NCBI GenBank assembly: GCA_029856365.1
Contig: JAHQWW010000007.1
Location: forward strand, 5,778 to 69,777
DNA: 64,000 bases
Source of the DNA: Candidatus Hodarchaeota archaeon
GTDB taxonomy: Archaea; Asgardarchaeota; Heimdallarchaeia; Hodarchaeales; Hodarchaeaceae
Reading direction: 5' to 3'
Below are positions 12,141 to 62,055 of this stretch, piece after piece (position 1 is the first letter of the stretch; each line of letters starts with the position of its first letter). The position numbers and the translations under genes are program-made. The notes below the pieces were generated by a model that saw only the letters and a list, made by a program, of their open reading frames with translations, was not told the DNA's origin and did not search any database.

Positions 12141-13490
12141 TTAGTGAAACTCTTGATACTTCTCACGGATTGTAATTTCTCCTTTCAAATTTTGTTTCAT
12201 TAATTCCTTGACTTTTTCCTTTTCACGATAATTTCCTAGGAGATATGCTAGCTTTATATATGCTATTTCGGGTAGAATGTTGAATGCATGGATAACACCA
12301 GCTTTTTGGAGTCTTCTTCCGCTTTCATATACCGATAGAGCTGTAAAACCATGTAGACATTGAGTAGTCATTACAATAATCATCTCATTCTCAATAGCTT
12401 TTTCAATTGTAGGAATTAAATTGAATGAAACGTGTCCAAGTCCAGTTCCTACTAACACGATTCCTTTAAATCCGGCTTCGATACAGTAATCTAATATCCC
12501 TGGTTGGATACCAGGATAATGGTAAATGAGTCCGACCTTCTCTTCAAAGTTTTTCGTGATATGAACAGGTTTATTTTTCAGTTTGGCCTTTATAGGTAGA
12601 TTCTCCTCTTCCATTTCATAAATTATTTTTCCTTCAGTAATTCTACCTAATGGACTTCCTCCAATCGACTTAAATGTATCTCTTCGACTACTATGCATTT
12701 TTCGGACTCTTGTACCTCTATGTATGGTACAAGAAGTGTCTGACGATTTTTCATGCATGACAACTACTACTTCTTTTTTTGCTTGAGGAGAAGCTGCATA
12801 TAATACTGAATTATATAGATTAAAGAAGGCATCTGAGGAAGGGCGATCAGAAGACCGCTGAGAACCAGTAATAACGATTGGGAAAGGTGGATTTGTAATC
12901 GAAAAAGAGAGGGCAGCAGCAGTAAAAGCCATTGTATCAGTACCGTGTGTCAGTACAATTCCTTGAGGTGTTTTATTTTGGATTAAGTGTTCAATTTCTG
13001 TCAAGATTTTGATATAGTGTTAAAAAGTAATGTTCTCTGAAAAGATATCAAATAAGAGTCTTGTTTCAACCCGAGCCAATTCTGCAATTTCAGGAAAAGA
13101 TGAGAAAAGCTCCTCAGGAGTCAAAGCTGGAATTGTCCCTCCAGTTTGGTAATCCAAGCGAGAAGCAATTGTACCTCCGCAACCTAATATGGGAACAAAG
13201 GGTAATTCAGGTTTTTGGGTTACATTGACCTTTGGAACGTGGTATCTACCTTCAAAACGGCCAATTTTTTTGATCCTATATGTCTCCCTCGGATTGAATC
13301 CAATATTATAACCTGTAGATAGCTTTAGACTAATAAAATCAGTTTCAGCTAGTTCATTCCTTGGTAGTATTACTCCTTTTAGTGAAGAACCAGCCTTAGT
13401 AACCTCTATTTCATCCCAAACTTTTAAACCTTGATTTTTCAACCAATCTAATGTAGATCCTCTGTATCCAGTATATTTCTCTTCCGACAT
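12141..13490 (-). pseudogene. gatD: Glu-tRNA(Gln) amidotransferase subunit D (GatD) interrupted by a single in-frame TAA (13020-13022)
   Basis: The upstream ORF carries the asparaginase-type motif GCGGTIASRLDYQTGG and the downstream ORF carries VLTHGTDTMAFTAAA. Both are in one frame, 450 codons in total, separated only by ...FSENITF*HYIKIL... Confidence 0.8.
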
Positions 13491-27219: not shown

Positions 27220-27921
27220 ATGAAAATAGTCCTAATAGGCCCCTACAATAGTGGAAAATCAACGACAGTCCAAAAGATATGTAGGGGTTCTGCAGTCTCT
27301 ATTGATTATGGTGGAACAACAGTTGCTTTAGATCATTGTCGAACAAAGATTTATGGAGTTGAAATTTTCCTATTTGGAACTCCTGGACTTCAACGATTCG
27401 AGATAATCCGAAAAATCTTGAGTAAAGGAGCAGATGGTATCCTCTTTGTAGTTGATTCAGTGAATGTAGCTTCATTTGAAGAAGCTAAAAAACTATTGAA
27501 TGAAGTTTATGACATATTACCAGGCGTTCCTATTGTCCTCTGTGCAAATAAACAAGACATACGAGGAGCAAAAAGTCCCAACGAAGTAGCAGAAGTGGTT
27601 TTAGGAAAAAATAAAGACAAAATTTCAGTTATAGGAACTTCAGCAACAACTGGAGAACAAATTGAACACGCCTTAGGTCTAATTGTGCTTAATGCGATCA
27701 AACAGTATTATGATATTCTTATAGCAGTGAAGAAATCAAATGGTGAACTTGCAGAGATTGCAAAAAACATCCAACAACCTGAAGAGAAAGTTTATTCACA
27801 ACTTCAATTTGCCTCTTGGAGACGACTTATAATAGCTGATTGGGACAACTTAACTTTTAATTTAACGATAGGAGTTTCGAATATTACTGATATACTTGAA
27901 TTTGGACACAAACAGTTTTAA
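27220..27921 (+). CDS. MglA/COG2229-like small GTPase with a roughly 70-aa C-terminal extension
   Basis: GPYNSGKST (G1), FGTPGLQRF (G3 with Thr in place of Asp, as in the MglA family), CANKQD (G4), TSATTG (G5). Confidence 0.7.
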   Translation: MKIVLIGPYNSGKSTTVQKICRGSAVSIDYGGTTVALDHCRTKIYGVEIFLFGTPGLQRFEIIRKILSKGADGILFVVDSVNVASFEEAKKLLNEVYDILPGVPIVLCANKQDIRGAKSPNEVAEVVLGKNKDKISVIGTSATTGEQIEHALGLIVLNAIKQYYDILIAVKKSNGELAEIAKNIQQPEEKVYSQLQFASWRRLIIADWDNLTFNLTIGVSNITDILEFGHKQF

Positions 27922-32196: not shown

Positions 32197-32745
32197 ATGC
32201 CTACAAAATTGTTTGGTCGAGAGATAGAAAATCAAATAGCATTTGTTGGCCTTGCAAATGCGGGGAAAACTACCTTAGTTAAAAGACTTAAGGGAGACGA
32301 TAATCTAGAAACCGTACCAACAATGGGGATGAATATTGAGACTTTAAAAATTGGTGACATTGAAGTAATGGCTGCAGATCTAGGAGGACAGGCAACATAT
32401 CCGACGAGCTTATGGAAACCATTTGTTTCAGATGCATCAGGTATTGTGTTTGTATTTGATTCTGCAGACAGATCTAAAGTCGAGAATGCGGGAAAGTGGT
32501 TGAAGAACGTCATTCAATGGGCGCCAGAAGATTCTGCATTTCTTTTCTTGGCAAATAAACAAGATTTAACAGAAGCAATGACTCTTGAAAGAATTATTTA
32601 TACATTAGAACTTGAAAAAGAGATGGCTGCAAGACCTAGAACGTTTGCTGTTTATCCTTGTTCTGCATTAACAGGTGATGGGGTCGAGGAACCGTGGCAG
32701 TGGATGAGCGACAGGTTTCGTCATAGAATGTCACAAAAAAAATAG
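32197..32745 (+). CDS. Arf/Arl-like small GTPase
   Basis: GLANAGKTTL (G1), TMGMN (switch I), DLGGQ (G3), ANKQD (G4), CSALTG (G5). There is no Gly2. Confidence 0.8.
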   Translation: MPTKLFGREIENQIAFVGLANAGKTTLVKRLKGDDNLETVPTMGMNIETLKIGDIEVMAADLGGQATYPTSLWKPFVSDASGIVFVFDSADRSKVENAGKWLKNVIQWAPEDSAFLFLANKQDLTEAMTLERIIYTLELEKEMAARPRTFAVYPCSALTGDGVEEPWQWMSDRFRHRMSQKK

Positions 32746-32754
32746 GTGCCCCAT

Positions 32755-33318
32755 ATGAGTTTCCTTTCAAAGCTTCGCGCAAAATTTGCCAAAGAAAAAT
32801 TAACGGTAAAGATCGCGTGGCTGGGTCTTGACCAGGCAGGGAAAACTACATTAGTCAAAAGAATAACATCTGGAGAGTTTAACAGTAGTACTTTCCGAAC
32901 ATTAGGGATGAATGTTGATGAATTTAGTTCGGGAAATGTTCGATTTATTTCTTGGGATATTGGGGGGCAAGAAGCCTTTCGTGAATCTCTTTGGGAAAGC
33001 TATATGGCAGGTAGCATGGGAATCGTATATGTGGTGGATTCAGCCGATAGAGCTCGACTCTCAGAAGCTAAGATGGAATTATGGAAATATGTCCTTGATA
33101 ATGATAAAGTTGAAAACATACCAATTTTAGTCCTTGCTAATAAACAGGATCTTGAAAATGCCGCTTCAGCTGGAGAGGTTGCTCGAGGGCTCAATCTTCA
33201 TAAAGTTACGACACATTCATATGCTATCGTTCCCACGTCTGCCAAAACTGGTTTTAACGTTGAGGAAGGACTTGAATGGCTTCGCCAAAGGGTGACTGAA
33301 AAAATCGATCTCTTATAG
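32755..33318 (+). CDS. Arf/Sar-like small GTPase, tandem paralogue
   Basis: GLDQAGKTTL, TLGMN, SWDIGGQEAFRESLW (Arf-type WDxGGQ interswitch), ANKQD, TSAKTG. Confidence 0.85.
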   Translation: MSFLSKLRAKFAKEKLTVKIAWLGLDQAGKTTLVKRITSGEFNSSTFRTLGMNVDEFSSGNVRFISWDIGGQEAFRESLWESYMAGSMGIVYVVDSADRARLSEAKMELWKYVLDNDKVENIPILVLANKQDLENAASAGEVARGLNLHKVTTHSYAIVPTSAKTGFNVEEGLEWLRQRVTEKIDLL

Positions 33319-33368: not shown

Positions 33369-34178
33369 CTAACGTTTTTTCTTCATGACTACCTTTTCAG
33401 AAACCTCATTAATCCGGTCACAAAGTGCAAGAAACAGTGCATGTAACCTTTCCAGATTCAAATCTTTGTTAATTCGTGCATAAATACGAATGGATGGATC
33501 ATCAGCAGAATTGACAGAAATTCTAACAACTACTTTTCTAACATTATGAATCAGTTTCAAAAGGTTTTTATCACCGAGAAAGTATGTTCCTGTCCGTTGG
33601 GTGGTCGCTTTAACCAAAAAAAAATCATCAAATCTTTTTACTCCGAGCTCGATGTCTTCAAGTGTAAACAGGAAATCTTGATGTTTTTTTATTTGACCTT
33701 CTTCATGTTTAGGTATGATCTGAATCTTGGTAGGAATTTGAGAACGGATTTCTCCCTTTTTTGAGTTTGCCTCTAGTGCTATATAATCATTTACTCCTGC
33801 AAACCATGAGATGATGACTGATAACATGAGATGCCTTTCTTCTAGGGCAAATACCACACGGAAGTCTTGAAAGGGTATATCATGTGATCTCTTGTACTTG
33901 GGAAGTAACAAACCCCCGTTTGAACTCATTTCATCCATAACAAGATCATCGAATTCGTTTGTAAAGACTTCCAACAATGCTTCTCGTGATAATCGCATAA
34001 TTTTGCGATTTTTTCGTCTTCCAGCCCATAAAAGGTAGAATGTAAAGAATAGAACCGTCCCTGGGCCTAAGAATATTAAAACATAGTCTATCATCCCATA
34101 TCCTTCTTGGAGGAAAAAACGAGGAAAATTTTCTAGAGGAAACTCAAAAAATCCCAAATTCAACATCATTGAACTCAT
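33369..34178 (-). CDS. N-terminally membrane-anchored protein of unknown function
   Basis: One TM helix (VLIFLGPGTVLFFTFYLLW) followed by RRKNRK, then a 220-aa soluble alpha/beta region with no recognisable motif. Confidence 0.45.
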   Translation of the reverse strand: MSSMMLNLGFFEFPLENFPRFFLQEGYGMIDYVLIFLGPGTVLFFTFYLLWAGRRKNRKIMRLSREALLEVFTNEFDDLVMDEMSSNGGLLLPKYKRSHDIPFQDFRVVFALEERHLMLSVIISWFAGVNDYIALEANSKKGEIRSQIPTKIQIIPKHEEGQIKKHQDFLFTLEDIELGVKRFDDFFLVKATTQRTGTYFLGDKNLLKLIHNVRKVVVRISVNSADDPSIRIYARINKDLNLERLHALFLALCDRINEVSEKVVMKKKR

Positions 34179-34307: not shown

Positions 34308-34907
34308 TTAATGCTGTATAAAGCTAGCAATTTCCTTGTATCTGAAGGAATCTTTCCCATTTTCCCCTATAACTTGGTAAAATTGAAAAGCAGCACGACC
34401 AGAAATATCAATCTTGGTAGGTTCAATAACAAGTGCAATAGAAAGAGCATTGTGGAGCTGAAAAGAATAAATATGAGTTTTTATATCTGTTTGAGATAAA
34501 AATAGGCCATATCCAGGATGAGAATGCCACCAACCAAGGCAATAATAGTCATCTTCCAATATATCTTCAAAAACCCTAAAATCTTCTTCAGAAAAAGAAA
34601 CAGATACTTCATCACCTTCAGAAACAAAAATGATTTTTAATATTTCCAATTCTTTGGGACGTAGTTCTTTCCCACCTAACAGACCAATAGCTTCCCTAGG
34701 CATAGATTTTACTGAATATTCAGTTATTTCATCAAGTAATTTTCCTAAGATTGATACTGACTTAACTTGGGGAGATGAAGGAATTTTTAACTTTTCGATT
34801 TCCGCTTGTTTACCAAAAAAGCCCTCTTGTATTTTATTAGTAGTCTTCCCTTCCGTTATTTTATAATTTTCTGCCCTCAATCCTTTTTGTTTATTATTGT
34901 CAGACAT
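34308..34907 (-). CDS. JAB1/MPN/Mov34 (JAMM) metalloprotease, Rpn11/CSN5-like deubiquitinase
   Basis: Catalytic Glu in PREAIGLLGG and the JAMM motif GWWHSHPGYGLFLSQTD. Confidence 0.85.
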   Translation of the reverse strand: MSDNNKQKGLRAENYKITEGKTTNKIQEGFFGKQAEIEKLKIPSSPQVKSVSILGKLLDEITEYSVKSMPREAIGLLGGKELRPKELEILKIIFVSEGDEVSVSFSEEDFRVFEDILEDDYYCLGWWHSHPGYGLFLSQTDIKTHIYSFQLHNALSIALVIEPTKIDISGRAAFQFYQVIGENGKDSFRYKEIASFIQH

Positions 34908-34939: not shown

Positions 34940-35482
34940 TTACTTTGCATGCTTCTTGGTCCAATCTTCAGCTGTTTCCCAGAATTTATCAAAATTTGTT
35001 TTCATCATCTCTCCAGCTTCAGGATTAAAGGGATCATTTGGATCAACAAGATATTCTGGAAAATCTACATCCCCTGTTGCCTGATAAACATCTAACATCA
35101 TTTCAACATGTTCAAAGACACTGGGCAAAGTTATCGTTTCCTTCCAACCACCAGGTTTCCCTAAGTTATTCCAATTCACAAGACTTAAGCATACATTGGA
35201 GCCCCAGTTCCATTGAGTTTTACCAGTTGCAATATTAGGGTGATATATAGGAGTCAGAAAGTTGATAATTGGAGGTTTAAAGGGATATTCAGAAGGTAAG
35301 TCAAGAGTGATCTCCCATTTACCTCCCTCATAAGGAGTATTTTTCTTTCCTTTAATAGTCGCTTTGTAATGATGAAGGTCATTATTGACTATAGCCCATT
35401 TAATGGGACTTTTTTTCGGTGGATAAGTTTTCAACATCCGTTTGAACTCTTCTCGTAGCCGTCTAGAGTGTAAATCCTGCAC
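34940..35482 (-). CDS. Ubiquitin-conjugating enzyme E2 (UBC fold)
   Basis: YPFKPPIINFLTPIYHPNI (HPN motif), followed by the active-site region NVCLSLV. GTG start. Confidence 0.85.
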   Translation of the reverse strand: MQDLHSRRLREEFKRMLKTYPPKKSPIKWAIVNNDLHHYKATIKGKKNTPYEGGKWEITLDLPSEYPFKPPIINFLTPIYHPNIATGKTQWNWGSNVCLSLVNWNNLGKPGGWKETITLPSVFEHVEMMLDVYQATGDVDFPEYLVDPNDPFNPEAGEMMKTNFDKFWETAEDWTKKHAK

Positions 35483-35703: not shown

Positions 35704-36498
35704 ATGGAGGATACACAAACTGATATTTCTCAATGTAGCGGTTGTGGGGCGCCCCTTCCAATAAGACCAACATATCAACACCCTATAAAGTGTGAATACT
35801 GTGACCTGACAAATTATCTGAAACGGGCCGCTATCACACCAGCAGAAGCACAAATGATGGATGCAGAAGAAGAAGCTGAAAATTATTATCTTATTTACCA
35901 AGAATCACAGAAAATTCTTGAAAATTTTCCTGGGGAATTTGTTGGTGATGAAGTAAGTAAGATAAGGATAAAGATGCAAGTAAAAGAATACGCTTTTCCT
36001 CTCTTTCTTGTGTTGGATGATTTACCTGACCGACCTTACATTGATGGCCCTGCTAAACTTAGAGAAATATTAGATTGTGAAATCAATGATTTAAAAGGAA
36101 TGAAAAACTGGACTCCCGGTTCAGGTTCAGTACTGAGCGTGTTAGAAGAAATTTATCAGAAAGCTGAAGAAGGACTTCCCCGAGTCATGGAAGAACCCGT
36201 TATAGCGTCTTCTGAAGTTTCTTCTATAATTCAAGAAGAACGTGATCCTCTTATACGTCAAATCCTCGCGAATTATGATGCTTCAGCAGATAAAAAAGAG
36301 ATTAATGTAAGATTTTATGCCCAGAATGGTGAAGTCATAAATTTTGTCATTAGGAGAAAAAAGAATTTACCTATAGGTCTTGAAAGTGATATTTTGACTA
36401 AATATCCTCTTATCCGAGGGCCTTTAGAGGATTATGCCAAAGGACGGATTGATATTCTTTCTACACTCTCAGAAATTGAACGTATGTTTTACACTTAA
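35704..36498 (+). CDS. Zinc-ribbon protein with non-catalytic E2-like (RWD/UEV-like) domain(s)
   Basis: CSGCG...CEYC at the N-terminus. The stretch YQESQKILENFPGEF...IRIKMQV...FLVLDDLPDRPYIDGP...VLSVLEEIYQKA follows the RWD/UEV secondary-structure pattern. No HPN or Cys active site was seen. Confidence 0.45.
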   Translation: MEDTQTDISQCSGCGAPLPIRPTYQHPIKCEYCDLTNYLKRAAITPAEAQMMDAEEEAENYYLIYQESQKILENFPGEFVGDEVSKIRIKMQVKEYAFPLFLVLDDLPDRPYIDGPAKLREILDCEINDLKGMKNWTPGSGSVLSVLEEIYQKAEEGLPRVMEEPVIASSEVSSIIQEERDPLIRQILANYDASADKKEINVRFYAQNGEVINFVIRRKKNLPIGLESDILTKYPLIRGPLEDYAKGRIDILSTLSEIERMFYT

Positions 36499-36520
36499 GT
36501 TAATTAAGAAGGTGAAAATT

Positions 36521-36841
36521 ATGAGTAAAAAGGATGTAATTTGGGATTCTACTTCTACAGGAAAAACCCCTGACAGTGGTATTGAAAAAATGATTAAAAT
36601 TCGCTTTAAGGATCCACAACTTCCTCCAGATCAAAATATTCGTGAAAAATACATCAACATTAACGGAACTGTATTTCAAGCAATCACAGCGGCTCGTGAT
36701 GCATTTAATATTCCAGAAGTTGTACCGATCGCTTTATTATTCAAGGGAAGAAGAATGAATCCTTCAAATAATCTTTCTTCCTATGGAATCGAACAAAATG
36801 CAATTCTCATGATAGTTCCAGACCAGATTAAGGGGGGATAA
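36521..36841 (+). CDS. Ubiquitin-like beta-grasp protein ending in Gly-Gly-stop
   Basis: ...ALLFKGRRMNPSNNLSSYGIEQNAILMIVPDQIKGG* parallels the ubiquitin C-terminal half. A GGTGA SD precedes the ATG at 36521. Confidence 0.8.
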   Translation: MSKKDVIWDSTSTGKTPDSGIEKMIKIRFKDPQLPPDQNIREKYININGTVFQAITAARDAFNIPEVVPIALLFKGRRMNPSNNLSSYGIEQNAILMIVPDQIKGG

Positions 36842-36880: not shown

Positions 36881-38110
36881 ATGACACAGGATCTTCCTTC
36901 TTCCAAATATGACCGACAAGAACGTCTATCTCTCTGGGATCAACATATCGTTGAAGATAGTGTAATTTTAATAGCAGGAGTAGGAGGGACAGGTAGCGAG
37001 GTAGCTAAGAACTTAGCTTTATTGGGTATTGGTGGTTTGATCCTTGTTGATGTTGACACCATAGAATTTTCTAACTTAAATCGTCAAATGTTGTTTAAAG
37101 AGGAGGATGTTGGGAAGAAAAAGGTAGAAATTGCAACAAAAAGGATTCGAGAGAGATTTAATCCCGATATAAAGATTGAAAGCTATTCAAACCTCCTCCA
37201 AAACTTACCACAAAGGATTTTTCACAAAGTTGACATCATCGCAGGCTGTGTAGATAATTTTTTGGCGCGACAATATCTTAATGCTATGGCGGTTGAACTG
37301 AAAATACCTTTTATTGATTCAGCTACCGATGGTTATTTCGGACAAATCCAGTACATAAAGCCAAAAGATACTGCTTGTTTAGCTTGTGAAACACCCCAAC
37401 CGCCTAATGAAACTCGAGTTTTAACAGCTCCTTGTACCTTAGTGGGAGTTCCTCGTGTGAGAGAACATTGTGCTTGGAAAGCGCTTTATGAATTTAGTAC
37501 TATCCATGAGCGTGAACCTATAGATACCTCGGCTGAAGATATTGCTGAACTTACAAAATTAGCAAATAATTTTGCCTACGAGTACAATTTTGGGCAATTT
37601 GATGAAAAACAACTCTTACAATTAATACTTTTCCACGTACCCAGTCTGATCACTGTTAATGCGGTAGTCAGTGGTCTACAATCTCAAGAAATCATAAAGT
37701 CTCTCTTTTTAGAAAAAAAAGATATTATGAAAGAAAGGGAACGCAAAATCCTTGAAAATTTGCTAAAAGCTCATAGATTCCGCATCCCTTCATTTATCAT
37801 ATATTCTGCGTTAACAGGGACTATTAATACATTCGATTTAGTTCCTGATCCAAGTTGTCTTGTTTGTGGTCAATCTAATACCGTTGTAGATTCCATCCAA
37901 ATCGTAACAGTAGATCGTAAGTCAAGATTTGGATCTCTTCTTGATACGATTCGAGAAGAACATAATAAAGACTATGTTGGGTTTCGAGGAAATCTCATCA
38001 TACCTGATGATGGTATCATCCAAAAATTTCTTTCTGATGGTGATCGGATAACTCTTAGTTCTTTAGCTGATGATGAAGAAATACGTTTGCAAATAAAATT
38101 TCTAAATTAA
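36881..38110 (+). CDS. E1-like ubiquitin-activating enzyme (ThiF/MoeB/UBA family)
   Basis: GVGGTGSEVAKNLALLGIGGLILVDVDTIEFSNLNRQ adenylation motif, CLAC/CLVC zinc site, and a eukaryote-type PCTL catalytic-Cys motif (TAPCTLVG). Confidence 0.88.
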   Translation: MTQDLPSSKYDRQERLSLWDQHIVEDSVILIAGVGGTGSEVAKNLALLGIGGLILVDVDTIEFSNLNRQMLFKEEDVGKKKVEIATKRIRERFNPDIKIESYSNLLQNLPQRIFHKVDIIAGCVDNFLARQYLNAMAVELKIPFIDSATDGYFGQIQYIKPKDTACLACETPQPPNETRVLTAPCTLVGVPRVREHCAWKALYEFSTIHEREPIDTSAEDIAELTKLANNFAYEYNFGQFDEKQLLQLILFHVPSLITVNAVVSGLQSQEIIKSLFLEKKDIMKERERKILENLLKAHRFRIPSFIIYSALTGTINTFDLVPDPSCLVCGQSNTVVDSIQIVTVDRKSRFGSLLDTIREEHNKDYVGFRGNLIIPDDGIIQKFLSDGDRITLSSLADDEEIRLQIKFLN

Positions 38111-38218: not shown

Positions 38219-38533
38219 TTACTTTTTATAAAATAATCGTATCTTGTCCCTTCTTTTGGGGAGAATTGGATTGATTTTCGGTTTCAGGTAAGGTTCTTTA
38301 AAACCAAGATCAGGGGCTTTTTCATCAGTTAATCGGTCATAAATCTTTCCAATTACTTGATCTCGTGATTTTTGAGTGATTTGCGGCTTTTTATAGAATT
38401 TTCGAGCAACTCTAGGGCGGTGATGGGGAATCTCCACGCGTTTCCCACACTTAGGACAATACCAACTCCCAGAGACAGGGAGATCTCGAGGAATATGACC
38501 ACAATTTGCACATTTGAATTCATTCTGAGCCAT
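38219..38533 (-). CDS. Small basic zinc-ribbon protein
   Basis: CANCGH...CPKCGK followed by a Lys/Arg/Pro-rich tail. The ATG at 38533 has a gagga SD. Confidence 0.45.
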   Translation of the reverse strand: MAQNEFKCANCGHIPRDLPVSGSWYCPKCGKRVEIPHHRPRVARKFYKKPQITQKSRDQVIGKIYDRLTDEKAPDLGFKEPYLKPKINPILPKRRDKIRLFYKK

Positions 38534-38657
38534 TATATTTTTTCCTCTGGCTTTTCCCACTAAACTTCAATACTATAAAAGCCTAAAGATTTTATAAAAA
38601 AATATTTCTCGGTTTTTTCATATAAAAATTTTACAGCAAGAGATCTGGGTCAGACCA

Positions 38658-40409
38658 ATGTTTGGGAGAAAAAGACAAAAATGGTTCACAGAAGCTCAAA
38701 TGGCACATACTCTGCTTAAATTCCGTGAAATGGCACCAAGAGAAAACCCAAGCGTTATTGCTGCATTTTTGCGTGAAAAAATTGGTTCAAACGAGTTAAA
38801 TGGCTTTGTTAGTTTTGATGACGAAAAATTCATCCCTAAAAAGTTCCTTCACCAATGGATATCTCGTGAATTGGCAACAAAAGGTTTTATAGACATATGT
38901 GATGTTATTGACACTACAAACTTACCAGGTGAGCTACTAGAACACCAAATCAAATTGGCAGCTCAAAATATCGAGGGGTTCTTTGATATCATTCATCGAA
39001 AATTCTTCACCCTACAAGGAGCTAAAGCAGAAATCAAACAGAGAGTAAGTACAAATACCACAATGGATCTGAAATATCTCTTGAACCAACTCTATTGGAC
39101 TGAAGAATACTTAGAAGGCGTTTTGGAGCTTATTGCCCAAGAAAATCAATTCATTGGTTACATTGATCCAATAAAAAAACGAATATATAATTTTACTCTT
39201 TTAAATTTCTCCTCTCCCTCAGACATGCAAAAAAATATCAAATATCTCATTCGTTTTATAAATACAAGTTTTCAATTGGAATCTGAAGTCTCAGTTAACC
39301 ATATTAGTAAATTAACACAACTATCAGAAGAAGAATGTCTAGAATTTCTGGAAAGAATTCGAAACCAAATCAGCTTCATCTTTTCCGCTAACTACCATTA
39401 TCTATATTCCACTATGGACATTATGAACCAAATCTTGAAAGACATTTTCGTTTATCGAAATATTCCTATTGATTTCTGGATTCGACGTCTCGATGTAGAC
39501 AGACCTGATTTTTTCAATATGCTAAATATTTTAAATCAGAGTTTAAAGGGAACTTTGTCTGTAGAAGATTTTAGTGCTTCTTCTTTAAGCGAATGGTTCG
39601 AAAATGGAATTGCTGTTGAGGATTTAGCATCATCATTAAGTCTAGACCCATTAAAACTCTTAGATCGAATTCTCAAGTTAGCAAAGCTCCTTGGATTACG
39701 ACTTATAGCAGGAGAAACCTCTGATCCCTTTTTAGTTAAAGGTGTAAGATATTTTGAAATTTTTTGCCAAATAGACACGTCTTCTTATACGGATCCTGGT
39801 CTTTATTTCGAGTGTCAAAACTGTCGACGAATTATGTGCTCAAATTGCCGTTCTACAGGAAGTAAACATGAATGTCCGTTTTGTGGAAACATTTCTGCTT
39901 TTATTATCGATCTTCCTAGATATTGTCCCCATTGTAGGGTTAACTACACTCACTCTTACAATTTAGTGAGCACAGAGGAATGCTATTTCTGCAAAAAGGG
40001 TCCTTTAAAAATTGGATGGACTGAATACGAACCAATCCCACTTAAATCATCTGAATTAGATCCAACTCTCTTAGAATTTCTTGAACAGTCATCTAAAGCT
40101 GAAATTCCACTCAAACAAATAATAAATTTAATTAACCGCTCTGATAGCGAAACAATTAAACTATTAGAAAGCTACATCTTACGTGGTACGATTCAAGGGA
40201 GGATCAATATTCGAGAAATGACTTTACAATTAGCTTTACAAGAAGAAAAATTTCTTTGTGGTGTTTGTGAACTTTCTAAAACGGATTCTATCAATTATTT
40301 CTGCACATCTTGTGGCTTAAAATTATGTACAGATTGCTATAAAGAGATGAGCATAGTAGGAATGATTTTTTGTCCTGAATGTGGGGGAAGTTTGCAGGAG
40401 AACAAATAA
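38658..40409 (+). CDS. Multi-winged-helix protein with several Cys4 clusters and a C-terminal C4C4 cross-brace (RING-like) finger; candidate E3
   Basis: Repeated WH-like xxGxIDxxxxxxxF modules (FIGYIDPIKKRIYNF, ILRGTIQGRINIREMTLQL). The C-terminus has the spacing C-x2-C-x11-C-x2-C-x4-C-x2-C-x11-C-x2-C (nt 40257-40382). Confidence 0.4.
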   Translation: MFGRKRQKWFTEAQMAHTLLKFREMAPRENPSVIAAFLREKIGSNELNGFVSFDDEKFIPKKFLHQWISRELATKGFIDICDVIDTTNLPGELLEHQIKLAAQNIEGFFDIIHRKFFTLQGAKAEIKQRVSTNTTMDLKYLLNQLYWTEEYLEGVLELIAQENQFIGYIDPIKKRIYNFTLLNFSSPSDMQKNIKYLIRFINTSFQLESEVSVNHISKLTQLSEEECLEFLERIRNQISFIFSANYHYLYSTMDIMNQILKDIFVYRNIPIDFWIRRLDVDRPDFFNMLNILNQSLKGTLSVEDFSASSLSEWFENGIAVEDLASSLSLDPLKLLDRILKLAKLLGLRLIAGETSDPFLVKGVRYFEIFCQIDTSSYTDPGLYFECQNCRRIMCSNCRSTGSKHECPFCGNISAFIIDLPRYCPHCRVNYTHSYNLVSTEECYFCKKGPLKIGWTEYEPIPLKSSELDPTLLEFLEQSSKAEIPLKQIINLINRSDSETIKLLESYILRGTIQGRINIREMTLQLALQEEKFLCGVCELSKTDSINYFCTSCGLKLCTDCYKEMSIVGMIFCPECGGSLQENK

Positions 40410-40416
40410 CTCTATC

Positions 40417-41307
40417 TCATGACATCTGAGCTTTAAATTGAGCCAATTTTTTAGAATACTTATCTGTAAGTTCCTTGTACTTTTGTTCTGAGATTTTACC
40501 ACTGAGAAACATTTCATCAGCTTGCTCAAGCATTTGTTCATACTTTTTCACTTTCTCTGTTATGTCATCAAGCGACTTTCTTTCTTCTGTCAACTCTCGA
40601 CGTTGCTCTAAAACTTGCTTCTCGACTTCATACGATAACAAGGCTTGATATTCATCAGGTACCTTGAAACCTCCAATATCCAAGCCAACTAATTCTAATC
40701 CCCAACGAGAGGTTTCGGGTCCAAGCTCTGAACGAGTTTGGATTTCCAAGCTTCTACGTTCCTTGAGCATCTCGGGTACAGAATATCGTGACAATACATG
40801 TTTTACTGCTGCGATGATCGTTTGCTTGACCCAATTCTTCAATTCATCTCCAGAATAATATTTCTTATGCGAAACAATGTTCATAATAAAATTACGGGGA
40901 TTGACAACCCTCATACGAGAAATACCATAAGAACCTACCATTATATTATCAGAAGTATAAATCCCAGGTGTTCCCCATTTGATAATGAATTCTCGTTTGG
41001 TTACCCAGATAATTTCACTTCCAGGCTGTTTTGCACTCTTATCAAGCTCATAAATACCACTTCCTGCGATCCCCACTAAAGATCCAGATTGTAGCAAAAT
41101 GGCATTTTCTGGGTCTTTAACAATGAATCCATCATACTTCCGAAAACCATCAAGATCTTCGGATTTAATCCTACAAATCAATGAACTTTTTGCTTCTGGG
41201 CCAAAATCTGAACTCAAAATCGATTTTCCCTTAAATTTCTTTGTTCCAATATGTACAGTATCGCCTATTCTACGAAATAATCCACCATATTTCTCTACTT
41301 CTGCCAT
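40417..41307 (-). CDS. SPFH/Band-7-superfamily protein (YdjI/'virion core protein'-like subtype) with C-terminal coiled coil
   Basis: The pattern FIVKDPENAILLQSG...IIWVTKREFIIKWGTPG...GISRMRVVNPRNFI...LKNWVKQTIIAAVKHVLSRYSV follows the SPFH-like fold, with a heptad tail. A GGTGA SD lies in the 10-nt gap after the upstream gene. Confidence 0.55.
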   Translation of the reverse strand: MAEVEKYGGLFRRIGDTVHIGTKKFKGKSILSSDFGPEAKSSLICRIKSEDLDGFRKYDGFIVKDPENAILLQSGSLVGIAGSGIYELDKSAKQPGSEIIWVTKREFIIKWGTPGIYTSDNIMVGSYGISRMRVVNPRNFIMNIVSHKKYYSGDELKNWVKQTIIAAVKHVLSRYSVPEMLKERRSLEIQTRSELGPETSRWGLELVGLDIGGFKVPDEYQALLSYEVEKQVLEQRRELTEERKSLDDITEKVKKYEQMLEQADEMFLSGKISEQKYKELTDKYSKKLAQFKAQMS

Positions 41308-41317
41308 AAGATTTCAC

Positions 41318-42319
41318 CTACCATCCATTGTCCCCATATAATCCAGGAAAATAATATTGATCTCCTGTATCAAGAGATGAAACTTTTCGTGCAATTTTTT
41401 GTTCAATAAGGCTTTCAAGAACTCTAATTACACGCTGATGATCCCATTTTGTTCCCATTACGACCTCTTCCAGTGTAACATATCCCTTATTAACTGCAAG
41501 ATCAAAAACTTTCCTTGCATCGCTCCCGAGAGTGACTGGAACAAATTCTACTATCTTAACTCCGGATCGTTTTACAATTCCTTCAATGAGAGATTGTTTT
41601 TTAAGGCGTTTACAGGATTTTTCCAGATCTTTTGTGGAGAATTCTACATCAGGAACTTGAGTTTTTAAGGCTGTATAGAGATTTGCCAGCGAAATATAAC
41701 CACCAGAACTAGCTCGGAGATTTTTTCCATATTCAAGAATCAAATCGTCTAATGTTTCTTCAAACTTTCCTTTTCCAAACAGTTTTGGTTTTTTTGTTAC
41801 ATCTAGAGCAGTTACAGTCAAAGCGCGACCTTCTTTACGTAATAGCTCTTGCTCTAGCTGAGTAATCCGAGTATCGTATTTTTTCTGTAAGTTTTTAATG
41901 CTTTCAGTCGATACAGGGGCTCCATCAGCCAATTTTTTTTGAACTTGGACAACTTCATTTAGTCGAGTGATTTGTTCTCGAATCTCACGAATTTCATCTC
42001 GAATATCCAAATCCTCTTCCCCAAAATCAAGATCCTCTGCTAATCGCGTTGATTGGTCTGCAATTCGCTCACAGAGAATGGAAGCAAGCAATTGCGCAAC
42101 CCGTATTTCACCACTCGATTTGAGATTGGATTTGGTTTGGTCAGGATGTAGAATGAAATCAGGAATAGTTTCACTTATATACCGAATCTCCTCAAATTTT
42201 GTATAGATCCTCACCGTTATATCTGCGACACTTCGAGCATTCGTTGAAACACTATTATTTAAACGTGTCAAGGCATTACTGGCTTTTAAAAAGTATTCTT
42301 TCACGAATTTAACCACCAT
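41318..42319 (-). CDS. ESCRT-II Vps22/SNF8 (EAP30)-like tandem winged-helix protein with a roughly 170-aa N-terminal coiled-coil extension
   Basis: The C-terminal 150 aa align by eye with human SNF8: SGGYISLANLY vs NGGLITLEEL, STKDLEKSCKRLKK vs SQDDLIRAIKKLKA, and GYVTLEEVVMGTKWDHQRVIRVLESLIEQ...QYYFPGLY vs GYVTVSEIKASLKWETERARQVLEHLLKE...HYWLPALF. Confidence 0.75.
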   Translation of the reverse strand: MVVKFVKEYFLKASNALTRLNNSVSTNARSVADITVRIYTKFEEIRYISETIPDFILHPDQTKSNLKSSGEIRVAQLLASILCERIADQSTRLAEDLDFGEEDLDIRDEIREIREQITRLNEVVQVQKKLADGAPVSTESIKNLQKKYDTRITQLEQELLRKEGRALTVTALDVTKKPKLFGKGKFEETLDDLILEYGKNLRASSGGYISLANLYTALKTQVPDVEFSTKDLEKSCKRLKKQSLIEGIVKRSGVKIVEFVPVTLGSDARKVFDLAVNKGYVTLEEVVMGTKWDHQRVIRVLESLIEQKIARKVSSLDTGDQYYFPGLYGDNGW

Positions 42320-42825
42320 TCTTAGAATGACACACGGATATGCATTTACATTCTTATTTTAGAGGCGAGTCTTTAGTCCATATGTAACAGGCTCTCCGTA
42401 TTAAAAATTATTCTTATATTTACACTAATCACGTTTTTTGTCTTTTTAAAGCTTTATGTTTGGGCGTTTTCTGACTTGTATTGTGGTTATTTAACTTTCT
42501 CTGATTGGTAATCCCTTGTCATTAAGCTGGAATTTAAAACAGAACTGATATTCAAGATCACTGGTTGCATTCCATGTTACCTCTGAAATATTCATAGAAC
42601 TAATTCGTTCAGGTGGCATATAGATTGTTGTGATGGTGGTTGTCATAATTAGTTTTTATTGCGATGTTTACTTTTATGTAATCGTTTTAGAATGTGATGA
42701 TAATGTTTCTCGCGATTCCAGAGTTCTTATCAAAGTGGAAAAAGATCTTTTACTTATTTCAACCACTATTCCCTAGCTTAGGAAGACATAATTCCTCAAT
42801 CCCGCTTTTCAAAGCTGTGAGGAGA

Positions 42826-46748: not shown

Positions 46749-47246
46749 GTGATAGATCCCAGAAGATTCGACACTGTACTTAGTAAAATCATTAAAAGCG
46801 AACCAGGTATTAAAAAAGTAATCCTAGTAGATCGAACTGGTCTCACAATTGCCCACGTTTCTAAATTTAGCTATGTATCTGTTGATGTAGATGGGATTGG
46901 TGCAATAGCATCCGCTGTATTTATGGCGTCAGCCGAACAAGGACTAAATCTCACAATAGGCGGCCTAGATATCGTTACCTCAGAATTTGATACTGGAAAA
47001 ATTTTTGCTAGTACATGCGGGCGCGGAATTTTGACAATTATTTCAGATGCCGATGTAAATATAGGTATGATTAGATTACTCATGAGAAAAGCTAATGAAG
47101 AACTCAGTAGTATATTAGACGAATTTTTAGCTGGAAAACCCACACGTATAGGCATTGGAGGGGTAGCTTCTGCGACTCCTGAGGTTCGTACAAGTCTTGA
47201 AAAAGATGAACTAGAAGCAGCATTACGAGAACTCGAAAAATTCTAA
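46749..47246 (+). CDS. Roadblock/LC7 (MglB-like) domain protein with C-terminal extension
   Basis: GIKKVILVDRTGLTIAHVS...GIGAIASAVFMASAEQG...GKIFASTCGRGILTIISD. Confidence 0.75.
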   Translation: MIDPRRFDTVLSKIIKSEPGIKKVILVDRTGLTIAHVSKFSYVSVDVDGIGAIASAVFMASAEQGLNLTIGGLDIVTSEFDTGKIFASTCGRGILTIISDADVNIGMIRLLMRKANEELSSILDEFLAGKPTRIGIGGVASATPEVRTSLEKDELEAALRELEKF

Positions 47247-47293
47247 CATTATTCCTGAATCACGACTCCTAACCTTCAGAGGAGACTTATTTC

Positions 47294-47881
47294 TTGAGAA
47301 AGGATGCAGAAGGTCGTCATCGATTCAAAGTTGTATTCTATGGCCCATCTCTGGGTGGGAAAACAACAACATTAGCTTGGTTATATAAAAGAGTAGATGG
47401 TCTTGAGAAAGGAAAATTTACTCAGTTAGCAGATCCCACGGGCCGCACTTTATTTTTCGATTTCGTCCCAATGCAAGCAACCACGGGTGTTGTTTTTGAT
47501 GTGTATACTACTGCAGGTCAAGAACGTCACAAACATCAGCGTAAAATAGTCATACAAGGAGTAGATGGTCTTATATTTGTTGTTGATTCTAGTGCTTCAC
47601 AATTTCAAGAGAATGTGGAATCTTTCAATGAGTTAAAATCTCGTTTAGGTAATCAACTGGGTAAAACCATCCCTCTTGTTATTACTCTCAACAAGCGAGA
47701 TGTACAGGATGCTTTGCCTAGATCAGAGTTGATTCAAAAGCTCGAAATCCAAGATTATCCCATATATGAGACTGTTGCGACCACGGGTCTCGGAGTCAAG
47801 CGTGCATTTCAATCATTGGCTCGTGAAATCCTTATGATCCAGCTTTATGGAACTAAAGAGTCTCAAATAGCCAAAGCTTAA
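47294..47881 (+). CDS. MglA-like small GTPase
   Basis: FYGPSLGGKTTTL (G1), VYTTAGQERH (MglA-type TxxGQ G3), LNKRD (G4), TVATTG (G5). TTG start. Confidence 0.75.
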   Translation: MRKDAEGRHRFKVVFYGPSLGGKTTTLAWLYKRVDGLEKGKFTQLADPTGRTLFFDFVPMQATTGVVFDVYTTAGQERHKHQRKIVIQGVDGLIFVVDSSASQFQENVESFNELKSRLGNQLGKTIPLVITLNKRDVQDALPRSELIQKLEIQDYPIYETVATTGLGVKRAFQSLAREILMIQLYGTKESQIAKA

Positions 47882-61164: not shown

Positions 61165-62055
61165 TCATTCGTTAATTGTTGAAGAATCCCCTGCTGAAGA
61201 TTCAAGATGTTTTCTTTTCAAATAAGGCATTAACATAAATTGGTAAAATAAGTAAGCACAACCTAGAATGACCACAATAATAATGAGTAATACATTAAAT
61301 TGAGTCGATCCAGCATCAATAAAGGCTTGCATTGCAATTGGATCATCTATAATATCTTCCACGCTACCATCACCCTGAATCAATAGAGATCCTAACCATG
61401 CATAAAACACACACCGAATAATTGAGCCAATTAAAGTAGCAATACAGTATGATCTGAACTCAATTTTAAGAAATCCTGAAGCATAGGAAATGGGATCAAA
61501 GGCCATAAAAGGAAATGCTCTTGCTACAAGAATAGCTACTGCTCCATATTTTCCAATGTAAAAATCGAGAACAGCAAGATTTTCTTGGCCAAGAAATCTT
61601 TCCATCATTGGTCTTCCTCCAAGAACAGCAATATAATAGGTTAAAATTCCAGCTGCCATTGAGCCAACAATCCCAAGGATTGTACCCCCTATTAGGCCCC
61701 AGATGAGACCTGAAGATAAAAGAACAAGTTCCGATGGAATAGGTACTAATATACCTTGAATACCCATGAATAAAATAAAGATTAACCAACCCCATTCTTT
61801 TAAATCAATTATAGGTACAATAAACCAATGAATAACCATTGAGAATAACCAAGTGTCATCTTGATATTGAAGTATCAAGATTATAACACTAATAATGAGG
61901 ATAATTATGAAGAGAGTCATCCAAACCCAAGTAGATCTACTATGACCACTAAAAGTTCGCTTAATAGCTTCAAGTAACCAATTTAACAGTTTTCTTGCAA
62001 GACTGTAAGTCCTTGTTTTTTCTCCCTCGGATATATTTGATTCATTACGATCCAT
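61165..62055 (-). CDS. DedA/VTT-domain (SNARE-associated, TVP38/TMEM64-like) membrane protein
   Basis: PSELVLLSSGLIWG...YYIAVLGGRPMMERFLG...GAVAILVARAFPFMAFDPISYASG. Confidence 0.7.
   Translation of the reverse strand: MDRNESNISEGEKTRTYSLARKLLNWLLEAIKRTFSGHSRSTWVWMTLFIIILIISVIILILQYQDDTWLFSMVIHWFIVPIIDLKEWGWLIFILFMGIQGILVPIPSELVLLSSGLIWGLIGGTILGIVGSMAAGILTYYIAVLGGRPMMERFLGQENLAVLDFYIGKYGAVAILVARAFPFMAFDPISYASGFLKIEFRSYCIATLIGSIIRCVFYAWLGSLLIQGDGSVEDIIDDPIAMQAFIDAGSTQFNVLLIIIVVILGCAYLFYQFMLMPYLKRKHLESSAGDSSTINE

Follow-up and report, generated by a model that had tools for sequence, protein, structure and literature searches.

Canonical Asgard Vps22 (SNF8/EAP30; asCOG cog.002769, for example HeimAB125_14050) consists of a helical N-terminal segment followed by two winged-helix (WH) domains. 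In published Asgard loci vps22 is found with vps23 and vps28, and vps25 with ESCRT-III, and vps22 is never paired with a gene of the SPFH family. The canonical Vps22 loci in Table S2 of Makarova 2024 carry Vps25, Vps4 and Snf7 and, as far as the entries of that table go, lack SPFH. Links between SPFH proteins and ESCRT proteins have been described in other prokaryotes. In the PspA-YdjGHI (SamGHI) system of Bacillus subtilis the gene for a cytosolic Band_7_1 SPFH protein lacking transmembrane (TM) segments shares an operon with that of a soluble membrane-remodelling or adaptor protein (PMC8581546, 10.64898/2026.02.06.704340), and YdjI recruits PspA (PMC8581546). The 'Meth_adaptin' archaeal ESCRT loci of methanogens contain SPFH genes, and there SPFH proteins that also contain a coiled coil and a zinc ribbon are tied by context to ESCRT-family WH proteins (PMC10936438). 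In eukaryotes, flotillin has been linked to ESCRT-0/I in the sorting of ubiquitinated cargo at endosomes, according to a passage in PMC10936438 (its ref. 59), and the UFL1-DDRGK1(-CDK5RAP3) complex is a membrane-tethered WH scaffold that serves a ubiquitin-like (Ubl) ligase. In a cultured Asgard archaeon, basket-like structures on the inner membrane face have been attributed to SPFH proteins (10.1101/2025.11.06.686947).

In the Hodarchaeota window studied here (the whole analysed stretch of 64,000 nucleotides), a long-form protein of the EAP30/Vps22 family, which we call EAP30L, is encoded directly upstream of an SPFH protein, within a cluster of genes for Ubl conjugation (Table 1). The pairing lies outside the canonical description of ESCRT, as an earlier note on this DNA had stated, and we found no description of such an Asgard pair in the searchable literature. 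EAP30L shares with canonical Vps22 the helical segment, the two WH domains and a C-terminal YFPGL motif, but it is some 90-118 aa longer at the N-terminus and is encoded with SPFH rather than with Vps23/Vps28 or Vps25/ESCRT-III/Vps4. The likeness to PspA-YdjGHI lies in a TM-less SPFH protein in an operon with a soluble partner, with membrane or zinc-ribbon proteins nearby that are possible recruiters; however, the Asgard partner is an ESCRT-II-type WH protein rather than ESCRT-III/PspA, and the locus is archaeal, Ubl-linked and devoid of PspA. Unlike the methanogen loci, which have Vps4, ESCRT-III, adaptin-appendage and GOLD proteins, the Asgard pair has none of these and lies beside Ubl enzymes. 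With UFL1-DDRGK1 it has in common a UFL1-like WH-array protein beside the pair, UFC1-like E2s in other lineages and, if the pair is tethered to a membrane as we suppose, the general logic of the system, but EAP30L is of Vps22 type rather than a DDRGK-domain protein, and the Ubl and E2 of the window are of ubiquitin type. As an analogy, the flotillin case likewise ties an SPFH scaffold functionally to early ESCRT components that read ubiquitin, but it is an interaction rather than an operon and flotillins are lipid-anchored.

Table 1. Features of the EAP30L-SPFH locus and its Ubl conjugation neighbourhood (positions in the window; AF2, AlphaFold2 model)
Feature	Position	Strand	Basis
SPFH/Band_7 gene, 296 aa, no transmembrane segment	40417..41307	-	Pfam Band_7 and Band_7_1
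SPFH C-terminal helices, aa 218-268 and 274-295 (predicted)	40423..40656	-	AF2 DSSP, heptads, alignment A8
Coupling junction: 10-nt spacer 41308-41317 and last stop base	41308..41318	-	sequence
EAP30L, EAP30/Vps22-family gene, 333 aa	41318..42319	-	ORF, Pfam EAP30, SNF8 profile, Foldseek
EAP30L tandem WH core, Vps22/SNF8 type, aa 179-330	41330..41785	-	SNF8 alignment, AF2
EAP30L helical segment and linker, aa 119-178, corresponding to N-terminal helical region of canonical Vps22	41786..41965	-	hhalign, AF2, alignments A1/A3
EAP30L N-terminal extension, aa 1-118, no counterpart in canonical Asgard Vps22	41966..42319	-	hhalign, AF2
p583, UFL1-like protein, convergent to SPFH gene	38658..40409	+	PCI, PF09743, human UFL1 match
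p113, small basic zinc-ribbon protein	38219..38560	-	weak zinc-ribbon Pfam/NCBIfam matches
E1-like ThiF-family activating enzyme, 409 aa	36881..38110	+	ThiF E 4.1e-55
Ubiquitin/SUMO-like protein, C-terminus ...QIKGG	36434..36841	+	Rad60-SLD and ubiquitin matches
p264, conserved protein, N-terminal zinc ribbon	35704..36498	+	synteny; no Pfam family
E2 ubiquitin-conjugating enzyme (UQ_con)	34940..35482	-	UQ_con E 2.9e-24
JAB/MPN isopeptidase	34308..34907	-	JAB E 1.4e-9, Prok-JAB E 1.4e-8
p269, conserved single-pass membrane protein, TM aa 33-51	33369..34178	-	Kyte-Doolittle 19-residue mean 1.95

Both open reading frames of the pair exist on the minus strand where the earlier note had placed them, and its assignment of the C-terminal half of EAP30L to the tandem WH proteins of Vps22/SNF8 type is borne out by sequence and by fold. 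The protein matches Pfam EAP30 (PF04157) over aa 137-307 (E 1.4e-10, 41.8 bits, gathering cut-off 26.8), and a profile of its family searched against the PDB aligns aa 179-330 with residues 89-242 of human SNF8 at E 4e-14, a significant similarity of the tandem WH core, and matches yeast Vps22 at E 9e-5. In a Foldseek search with the AF2 model (pLDDT 75), human and yeast Vps22 take ranks 1-3 (E 1e-7 to 1.5e-4), Vps36 comes next and Vps25 is at rank 12, such that Vps22 is the nearest fold among WH proteins. In the model WH1 spans 183-259, WH2 spans 266-323 and residues 164-181 are disordered; a conserved KKPKLFGKGKF motif (aa 176-186) starts in the linker and extends into the core, which terminates in a conserved YFPGLYG motif. 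We collected 72 homologues with lengths of 326-360 aa, and a 328-aa form, common among orthologues, would also result here from a possible GTG start at 42304. NCBIfam gave nothing informative for EAP30L or its SPFH partner, and a neighbour-joining tree of the EAP30 WH core was star-like and did not recover monophyly of the long forms.

With 333 aa, EAP30L falls outside the size and architecture of canonical Vps22 (about 235-260 aa, with a short helical N-terminus). Alignment of profiles with hhalign equates long-form residues 119-330 with residues 30-242 of canonical Asgard Vps22 (E 7e-40), so that on this sequence comparison residues 119-330 correspond to the entire canonical protein, and the additional N-terminal part is about 90-118 aa. 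An extra region had been proposed previously and is real, but not at the suggested 170 aa. Nor does its description as a long coiled coil hold: for the N-terminal part AF2 predicts not a single long coiled coil but five helices of 20-30 residues and a beta-hairpin, with helices at 2-27, 29-50 and 70-98, the hairpin at 55-65 and the start of a helix (106-132) falling in the extension, at a pLDDT of about 90 across much of the region. Across EAP30 proteins the lengths of N-terminal extensions form separate classes of about 80, 150-230, 300 and 600 aa. Neither Pfam nor PDB profile searches gave a reproducible family match for the extension of EAP30L. Makarova 2024 (PMC10936438) reports a steadiness box fused to canonical Asgard Vps22. 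We considered a Vps28/steadiness-box identity for the extension and rejected it, as the VPS28 match of the window protein was weak (E 0.012) and such a match occurred in only one of 17 family members; PDB profile searches, which gave generic coiled-coil and designed-bundle matches only, do not support this identity either.

The 296-aa partner is an SPFH protein, as had been claimed. It matches Band_7 (PF01145; E 7.8e-15, 55.8 bits, cut-off 23.6) and Band_7_1 (PF13421; E 2e-12, 47.7 bits, cut-off 24), stomatins match best in a PDB sequence search, and 80 homologues were found. Band_7_1 we take to be the YdjI-type family. The N-terminal motif is GGLFxRIGD...KKFKGK (alignment A8). No hydrophobic segment was detected (maximum Kyte-Doolittle 19-residue mean 1.18), and the N-terminal TM helix or hairpin anchor typical of stomatin, prohibitin and HflK/C is missing; given this lack of an anchor, membrane localisation is something that we infer. 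The C-terminus ends in predicted helices, in agreement with the earlier note; they have heptad spacing, and their pLDDT of 72-86 applies to that part only of a poor overall monomer model (pLDDT 49, from a shallow alignment with 17 close homologues). A terminal motif, ADExLLxGxISxxxY, which is SHOCT-like by eye, is kept in five of eight aligned lineages (7/10 sequences), and some Asgard partners contain a zinc ribbon. The C-terminal coiled coil is missing in three of nine lineages, yet the N-terminal extension of EAP30L is retained in these three, and because of this the proposal that the two proteins pair through their coiled coils is weakened.

The TAG stop of EAP30L (41318-41320) and the ATG of the SPFH gene (41305-41307) are separated by 10 nt, and the two co-directional genes are tightly coupled, as had been noted, with a Shine-Dalgarno-like GGTGA at 41314-41318 whose first G is the final base of the stop codon and which lies 6 nt before the SPFH ATG. 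A GGTG(A)/AGGT element precedes the SPFH ATG by 5-9 nt in nearly all of 28 loci, being degenerate in three distant ones, and the intergenic gap is 0-32 nt everywhere except in one locus (105 nt). Far from being confined to this genome, the pair is conserved across Asgard classes. Each of the 22 distinct loci of Hodarchaeales type that we examined has it, and so do all eight distant lineages with a long-form EAP30 (25-38% identity; metagenome-assembled genomes under labels such as Helarchaeota, Heimdallarchaeaceae and 'Odin'), in which gene order and strand of the pair are constant and the flanking genes differ. The conservation within Hodarchaeales alone proves little, because an entire block of 13 genes around the pair is syntenic there, including unrelated housekeeping genes (GINS, eIF2-alpha, GNAT), and the argument for the pair therefore depends on the eight distant lineages. 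In these the partners diverge in parallel, with SPFH identities of 27-43%, and the Hodarchaeales SPFH profile recognises all the distant partners, with E values from 1e-18 to 1e-96. A reciprocal metagenome scan starting from SPFH, which used the narrower alignment A9 and returned eight loci, found EAP30L upstream in six of seven informative loci. The EAP30L and SPFH genes are an ancient operon across Asgard lineages.

The genes on which a canonical ESCRT function would depend are not found around this operon. Pfam searches of all ORFs of at least 120 aa in the window found no Snf7, Vps4 or Vps25, and tblastn of the window with a Hodarchaeota ESCRT set gave no ESCRT match, in agreement with what had been noted before. 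ESCRT-III, Vps4 or Vps25 genes adjoin the pair in none of nine lineages, and no Snf7/PspA gene was found in the window or in related loci. In another Hodarchaeota lineage, the gene for a canonical Vps22 of 239 aa has Vps25, Vps4 and two Snf7 genes as neighbours but no SPFH gene. A homologue search aimed at genomes that might carry both the canonical Vps22 and the long form gave five matches, none of them on closed chromosomes. EAP30L is apparently a variant of its own, longer than and separate from canonical Asgard Vps22, and the identity given to it in the earlier note stands at the level of the family but not as a canonical ESCRT-II subunit.

In place of ESCRT genes, the window contains a cluster for Ubl conjugation. 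In p583, WH repeats occupy the N-terminal part and three zinc ribbons the centre; the protein also has a WH of PCI type and, at its C-terminus, a RING/B-box-like finger with eight cysteines. Cys columns are invariant in the p583 family, whose members match PCI in 11 of 11 cases (best E 1.7e-10) and E3_UFM1_ligase (PF09743) in eight of 11 (best E 3.7e-5). The likeness to UFL1 (E 2.5e-6 against the human protein) consists of below-threshold to moderate matches confined to the N-terminal WH repeats, and RING matches are weak. To our knowledge, eukaryotic UFL1 has neither the zinc ribbons nor the RING-like finger of p583. We regard p583 as the probable E3 or scaffold of this cluster. This zinc-finger gene, converging on the SPFH gene, and the surrounding Ubl conjugation cluster had been overlooked previously. 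The E1-like protein has a weak E1_4HB match and NCBIfam matches to Ube1 and UbaA. The Ubl matches Rad60-SLD (E 2.3e-6 to 4.6e-6) and ubiquitin (E about 1e-4), and its ORF as listed is over-extended, since orthologues have 100-112 aa. With an E2 of UQ_con type and a Rad60-SLD/ubiquitin-type Ubl ending in GG, UFC1 and UFM1 types are absent from the window cluster. Orthologues of p113 are mostly 104-110 aa, and its start is probably Met10. Both p113 and p264 are syntenic in all Hodarchaeales loci, and the zinc ribbon of p264 resembles the C-terminal ribbon of a 360-aa protein of locus L029 (E 3e-4); the homologous 363-aa protein of L030 had no direct significant match to p264. The membrane protein p269, also syntenic and with a weak CCDC47 match (E 0.016), is a possible membrane anchor of the system. 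Rfam at its gathering threshold gave no match in the window.

Among the nine lineages, E1, E2 or JAB genes lie near the pair in five and a UFL1-like protein in three. UFC1-like E2s are found beside the pair in three (L029, L030 and L035), those of L029 and L030 matching UFC1 at E 2-4e-5, just below the cut-off. In L030 the order is ThiF, JAB, an 87-aa ORF, the UFC1-like E2, EAP30L and SPFH, all co-directional, and in L029 and L035 the E2, JAB and ThiF genes are near the pair. The UFL1-like gene of L025 lies directly downstream of SPFH on the same strand and is followed by p113. L034 and L041 encode a protein with faint UFL1 and DDRGK Pfam matches (822 aa in L034; the L041 copy ends at a contig edge). 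No Ubl genes were found within the DNA available for L026 and the P0154 locus. TM proteins near the pair elsewhere are a 98-aa protein in L026, a 359-aa protein with a zinc ribbon in L028 and a 288-aa protein in L030. We tried the 87-90-aa ORFs beside UFC1-like E2s as UFM1 homologues, and found no match by BLASTP against human UFM1, by Pfam or by phmmer against the PDB; as they end in VG, they are possible Ubls.

The domain identities, the operon architecture, the deep conservation of the pair and a gene context of Ubl conjugation rather than ESCRT-III are shown by the analysis. The reading that we prefer, to which we give slightly better than an even chance, is that EAP30L and SPFH form a scaffold-plus-adaptor module, probably associated with a membrane, that serves a Ubl conjugation system. 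EAP30L comprises a complete canonical Vps22 (helical segment and two WH domains) behind an additional helical domain of about 100 aa, and the second gene supplies a soluble SPFH protein without an anchor, having in most lineages a C-terminal coiled coil and the conserved terminal motif. SPFH oligomers may form a ring or basket at the cytoplasmic membrane face, to which either their own basic N-terminus or a membrane or zinc-ribbon protein encoded nearby could recruit them. Translational coupling would provide EAP30L in matching amounts to dock onto this scaffold, where its WH pair could act as a platform for E1, E2, JAB and the candidate UFL1-like zinc-finger E3, giving a station at the membrane for Ubl-dependent marking or sorting of clients. 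The YdjI-PspA, Meth_adaptin and flotillin cases are precedents for SPFH proteins acting together with partners of ESCRT type, and the basket-like structures of the cultured archaeon are one for SPFH assemblies in Asgard cells. Any transfer from EAP30L-SPFH to ESCRT-III would be a conjectural further step. The earlier interpretation is partly borne out: its domain identities and its coupled pair stand, pairing through coiled coils is weakened, and the logic by which SPFH microdomains would engage ESCRT-II and thereby ESCRT-III finds no backing, since gene context, with ESCRT-III, Vps4 or Vps25 beside the pair in none of nine lineages, does not support nucleation of ESCRT-III by the pair.

It is nonetheless conceivable that EAP30L is a true ESCRT-II subunit, which would dock on SPFH microdomains and recruit Vps25, ESCRT-III and Vps4 encoded elsewhere for scission at SPFH-marked sites. 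The proximity of its WH core to Vps22/SNF8 in sequence and fold is what this would predict, yeast two-hybrid assays show that Heimdall Vps22 forms homodimers and interacts with Vps25 and ESCRT-I (PMC9192718), and SPFH-ESCRT links exist in other prokaryotes (PMC10936438, PMC8581546). However, Vps25, ESCRT-III and Vps4 are absent both from the window and from beside the pair, the Vps25-Vps4-Snf7 locus of another Hodarchaeota lineage holds a separate canonical Vps22, and published Asgard loci do not pair vps22 with SPFH, and we therefore regard a true ESCRT-II subunit as unlikely. We are equally doubtful that EAP30L is a Ubl E3 ligase subunit without any ESCRT role, whose WH pair would extend the WH array of a UFL1-like protein in the manner of DDRGK1, with SPFH in place of the endoplasmic reticulum (ER) TM anchor. 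The adjacent UFL1-like gene, in particular its position in L025, and the UFC1-like E2s of three lineages are in keeping with such a subunit, as is the architecture of EAP30L, in which a long helical region precedes WH domains at the C-terminus and which we take to resemble DDRGK1 minus its TM helix. An Asgard origin has been reported for both UFL1 and DDRGK1 (PMC10183829). The UFL1-DDRGK1 chimera 8b9x appears at Foldseek ranks 7-8, but with E values of 0.02-0.04 this is a weak match, explained by a similarity common to WH domains in general, and Pfam and PDB profile searches up to E 1 gave no DDRGK-domain match for EAP30L. The window E2 and Ubl are moreover of standard UQ_con and ubiquitin/SUMO type, and the 87-90-aa ORFs of other lineages have no detectable similarity to human UFM1.

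A combined possibility, to which we would give only about the same low credence, is that EAP30L and SPFH serve to dock an ancestral Asgard Ubl ligase, built around a UFL1-type scaffold, to the membrane; in it an ESCRT-II-type WH protein would take the part that DDRGK1 has beside UFL1 in eukaryotes, and an SPFH cage would replace the ER TM anchor. If so, ESCRT-II and the UFM1 E3 scaffold would have a common functional root in WH adaptor arrays, and membrane domains of SPFH proteins would have been sites of Ubl-dependent surveillance or sorting before eukaryotes arose. Simple inherited synteny, with each protein acting independently, is suggested by the GINS, eIF2-alpha and GNAT genes, which also hold their positions around the pair in Hodarchaeales. 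It is very improbable, as the pair persists in eight lineages at 25-38% identity with different flanks, short gaps and the Shine-Dalgarno-like element, and by our own estimate the chance of SPFH as a random downstream neighbour is about 1/1000.

Should the preferred reading of a scaffold-plus-adaptor module be true, Asgard archaea would have a second deeply conserved ESCRT-II-like protein, wired to SPFH and Ubl/UFL1-like enzymes rather than to ESCRT-III, and the Asgard ubiquitin-ESCRT picture would gain a new component. The contextual link between SPFH and ESCRT, until now seen in bacteria (YdjI-PspA) and methanogens, would extend to Asgard archaea. The two genes are also clonable targets for asking what role the basket-like membrane structures of the cultured Asgard cell have, and what UFL1-like proteins did before UFM1. 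A search for RNA runs covering the EAP30L-SPFH region, as evidence of co-transcription, found none. In DNA metagenomes the region is present in marine sediment, seawater, mangrove, marsh and soil.

The protein that we designate EAP30L, the long-form Vps22/EAP30-family product, is a member of the Vps22 family by both sequence and fold, but has neither the canonical architecture nor the genomic association with Vps25 and ESCRT-III. It matched Pfam EAP30 (PF04157) above the curated cut-off (E 1.4e-10), and a 19-member family profile aligned residues 179-330 with residues 89-242 of human SNF8 (E 4e-14) and also detected yeast Vps22 (E 9e-5). The AlphaFold2 model (mean pLDDT 75) contains winged-helix domains at 183-259 and 266-323, and was structurally most similar to human and yeast Vps22, then to Vps36, with Vps25 lower. 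Its partner, SPFH, exceeded the cut-offs for Band_7 (E 7.8e-15) and for Band_7_1 (E 2e-12), and with both ORFs present the pair reported in the earlier note therefore stands. Only 10 nt separate EAP30L from SPFH, and the EAP30L stop codon (TAG, 41318-41320) overlaps a GGTGA element (41314-41318) positioned 6 nt 5' of the SPFH ATG (41305-41307). The gap 5' of EAP30L is unusually long, approximately 500 nt; it contains AT-rich stretches resembling TATA elements, together with a short ORF that is unconfirmed, and had no Rfam match.

Features of the window and of related loci, with the distant long-form EAP30 proteins
Feature	Position	Strand	Remark
EAP30L	41318..42319	-	333 aa
SPFH	40417..41307	-	296 aa
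Non-coding gap	42320..42825
p583	38658..40409	+	UFL1-like; converges on SPFH gene
E1	36881..38110		ThiF-type
Ubl	36434..36841	+	ubiquitin/SUMO-like; C-terminus exactly ...QIKGG
p264	35704..36498	+	conserved unknown; N-terminal zinc ribbon
E2	34940..35482		UQ_con
JAB isopeptidase	34308..34907
p269	33369..34178	-	conserved unknown; one TM helix, aa 33-51
Several Arf/Ras-like small GTPases and a Roadblock/LC7 protein	27220..27921, 32197..33318, 46749..47881		two GTPases in tandem at 32197..33318
gatD	12141..13490	-	GatD_N and asparaginase domains; in-frame TAA 13020-13022 (...FSENITF*HYIKIL...)
NFACT/Rqc2-type protein	8469..10514	-	ribosome quality control
VTT-domain protein	61165..62055	-	membrane protein
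Small ORF by UFC1-like E2	L029 5466-5735	-
Small ORF by UFC1-like E2	L030 6235-6498	+
Small ORF by UFC1-like E2	L035 5330-5602	-
Tandem EAP30L genes	L035 590-1636, 1847-2887	+	upstream of SPFH gene
P0153			338 aa; unlabelled NCBI MAG
P0155			347 aa; MAG labelled 'Odin'
P0156			306 aa; unlabelled NCBI MAG
P0157			356 aa; Helarchaeota
P0237			338 aa; Heimdallarchaeaceae
P0171			344 aa; JGI metagenome
P0154			386 aa; JGI metagenome, one cluster member labelled Promethearchaeota
P0178			346 aa; Logan assembly

The N-terminal extension of EAP30L had been described as approximately 170 aa of one long coiled coil, but that length did not survive closer analysis, and its predicted form looks different. 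A profile-profile comparison against 16 short, canonical Vps22 proteins of Asgard archaea, among them the HeimAB125_14050 cluster, aligned long-form residues 119-330 with short-form residues 30-242 (probability 100%, E 7e-40), and the truly extra part is therefore residues 1 to approximately 118, a net gain of approximately 90 aa over canonical Vps22. In the AlphaFold2 model the N-terminal part is a bundle-like set of short helices (2-27, 29-50, 70-98, 106-132 and 139-162), in which residues 55-65 form a beta-hairpin and residues 164-181 are a disordered linker. No Pfam family or PDB sequence was matched reproducibly by the extension. SPFH contains no hydrophobic segment (highest 19-residue Kyte-Doolittle mean 1.18), and has a conserved motif at its N-terminus (GGLFxRIGD...KKFKGK) and, following the SPFH domain, predicted helices of 50 and 22 residues. 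These helices bear the motif ADExLLxGxISxxxY, kept in five of eight aligned lineages, in a region that by eye resembles a SHOCT domain, although Pfam reported none in SPFH. An extra coiled coil of approximately 200 aa is inserted in the SPFH of two lineages, while three others (L028, L030 and L034) lack the C-terminal helices entirely. EAP30L retains its extension in these three, which argues against pairing of the two coiled coils, as previously envisaged, being the conserved interface.

Each of the 22 distinct loci recovered from the Hodarchaeales-type clade has the same 13-gene order (GINS, eIF2-alpha, GNAT, EAP30L, SPFH, p583, p113, E1, Ubl, p264, E2, JAB, p269, where p-names denote neighbouring proteins by length), with identities of 60-95% for EAP30L and 62-93% for SPFH. 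The closest homologues are labelled Hodarchaeales, Hodarchaeota or Heimdallarchaeota, the nearest being on chromosome CP070665.1 (95% amino-acid identity). On its own, this synteny is weak evidence, as it extends to housekeeping genes with no relation to the pair. What is decisive for conserved pairing are the eight distant long-form relatives found by exhaustive HMMER search, in all of which a Band_7 gene lies directly 3' of EAP30 on the same strand while the flanking genes vary. The SPFH partners are specifically related: a Hodarchaeales SPFH profile matched the distant ones with E of 1e-18 to 1e-96. SPFH partners and their EAP30 neighbours diverge in step. The gaps between EAP30 and SPFH are 0-32 nt with a single exception of 105 nt, and almost every SPFH start is preceded, at 5-9 nt, by an element of GGTG(A) type. 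In a reciprocal search from SPFH, EAP30L was upstream in six of seven informative metagenome loci, with L043, on a 1.4-kb contig, an exception. The two tandem EAP30L genes of locus L035 hint at a heterodimer that would be analogous to Vps22/Vps36.

The pair is not associated with core ESCRT genes. The earlier note had seen no Vps25, ESCRT-III or Vps4 gene in the window, and this was borne out both by Pfam scans of every ORF of at least 120 aa and by tblastn with a Hodarchaeota Vps25/Vps4/Snf7 set; nor do these genes adjoin the pair in any lineage examined. A canonical Vps22 of 239 aa, encoded in a Hodarchaeota MAG, served as control, and it adjoins Vps25, Vps4 and two Snf7 genes and no SPFH gene. 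The same picture is seen in published neighbourhood-table entries for Heimdall LC_3 and AB_125, where canonical Vps22 is without SPFH (PMC10936438), and Asgard vps22 has been described as co-directed with vps23 and vps28 (Makarova et al. 2024, PMC10936438).

Instead, the pair is located inside a ubiquitin-like conjugation cluster. The C-terminus of its Ubl is such that C-terminal processing would not be needed, and the mechanical Ubl ORF of 135 aa is approximately 26-30 aa longer than its orthologues (100-112 aa) and overlaps the end of p264. The stop codons of p583 and SPFH are 7 nt apart (40409 vs 40417), and their transcripts must therefore overlap or terminate inside each other. Among 11 aligned members of the p583 family, PCI was matched in all and E3_UFM1_ligase in eight, and the family profile matched human UFL1 over the N-terminal winged-helix repeats (E 2.5e-6). 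These repeats are followed by three central zinc ribbons, a PCI-type winged helix and a C-terminal 8-Cys RING/B-box-like finger with weak RING matches; the fusion of UFL1-like proteins to zinc-binding domains is already known from Asgard archaea (e.g. asCOG cog.003822), and an Asgard origin has been proposed for UFL1 and DDRGK1 (PMC10183829). The NFACT/Rqc2-type gene lies 28 kb from p583.

Conjugation genes also accompany the pair in distant lineages. ThiF, JAB, an 87-aa ORF, E2, EAP30L and SPFH form one co-directional run in L030 (Heimdallarchaeaceae), and E2, JAB and ThiF surround the pair in L029 (Helarchaeota) and L035. The L029 and L030 E2s matched UFC1 at E 2-4e-5 (23.7-24.8 bits, cut-off 25), with poorer UQ_con scores. 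Beside the UFC1-like E2s of L029, L030 and L035 are small ORFs of 87-90 aa with ...RG(V/D)VG at, or at most two residues from, the C-terminus; no similarity of their sequences to human UFM1 was detected, and it is possible that they are Ubls, perhaps Ufm1-like modifiers. On the basis of structural comparisons, nine Asgard clades are reported to have Ufm1 homologues (PMC12962969). A p583 orthologue lies directly 3' of SPFH on the same strand in L025, and upstream of the pair in L034 and L041 is a protein with faint UFL1 and DDRGK matches (822 aa in L034, cut by the contig end in L041). The zinc ribbon of p264 resembles the C-terminal ribbon of a 360-aa protein beside the pair in L029, which is homologous to a 363-aa protein in L030. 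Membrane proteins also adjoin the pair in several lineages: p269 in the window (weak CCDC47-like match, E 0.016), a protein of 98 aa with two TM helices in L026, one with multiple TM helices and a zinc ribbon in L028, and another TM protein in L030.

The best-supported interpretation is a scaffold-plus-adaptor module made up of a cytosolic SPFH protein, which would oligomerise, and a long-form variant of Vps22; the module probably lies at the membrane and serves the adjacent Ubl machinery. We infer that EAP30L and SPFH would interact physically, and that SPFH would oligomerise and the module be targeted to membrane. The Asgard pair resembles two known systems in tying an SPFH protein to ESCRT-family partners: Bacillus, where PspA is recruited by YdjI (PMC8581546), and the methanogen 'Meth_adaptin' ESCRT loci, one component of which is an SPFH protein that bears both a coiled coil and a zinc ribbon (PMC10936438). 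It is a member of neither, because its locus has no ESCRT-III-family gene. In the searchable literature on Asgard, SPFH/ESCRT, UFL1/DDRGK1 and archaeal UFMylation, coverage of which is incomplete, the pair was not described, and Makarova et al. (2024, PMC10936438) give an SPFH link only for the methanogen systems and YdjI. The family may be listed in the asCOG tables under another number.

We note several further features of the window. Relatives L001, L002 and L025 likewise pair a GTPase with a Roadblock protein close to the cluster. The VTT domain belongs to the DedA/Tvp38/VMP1 family. The in-frame TAA that interrupts gatD could be a sequencing error; alternatively, the gene could be a pseudogene or be truly split.
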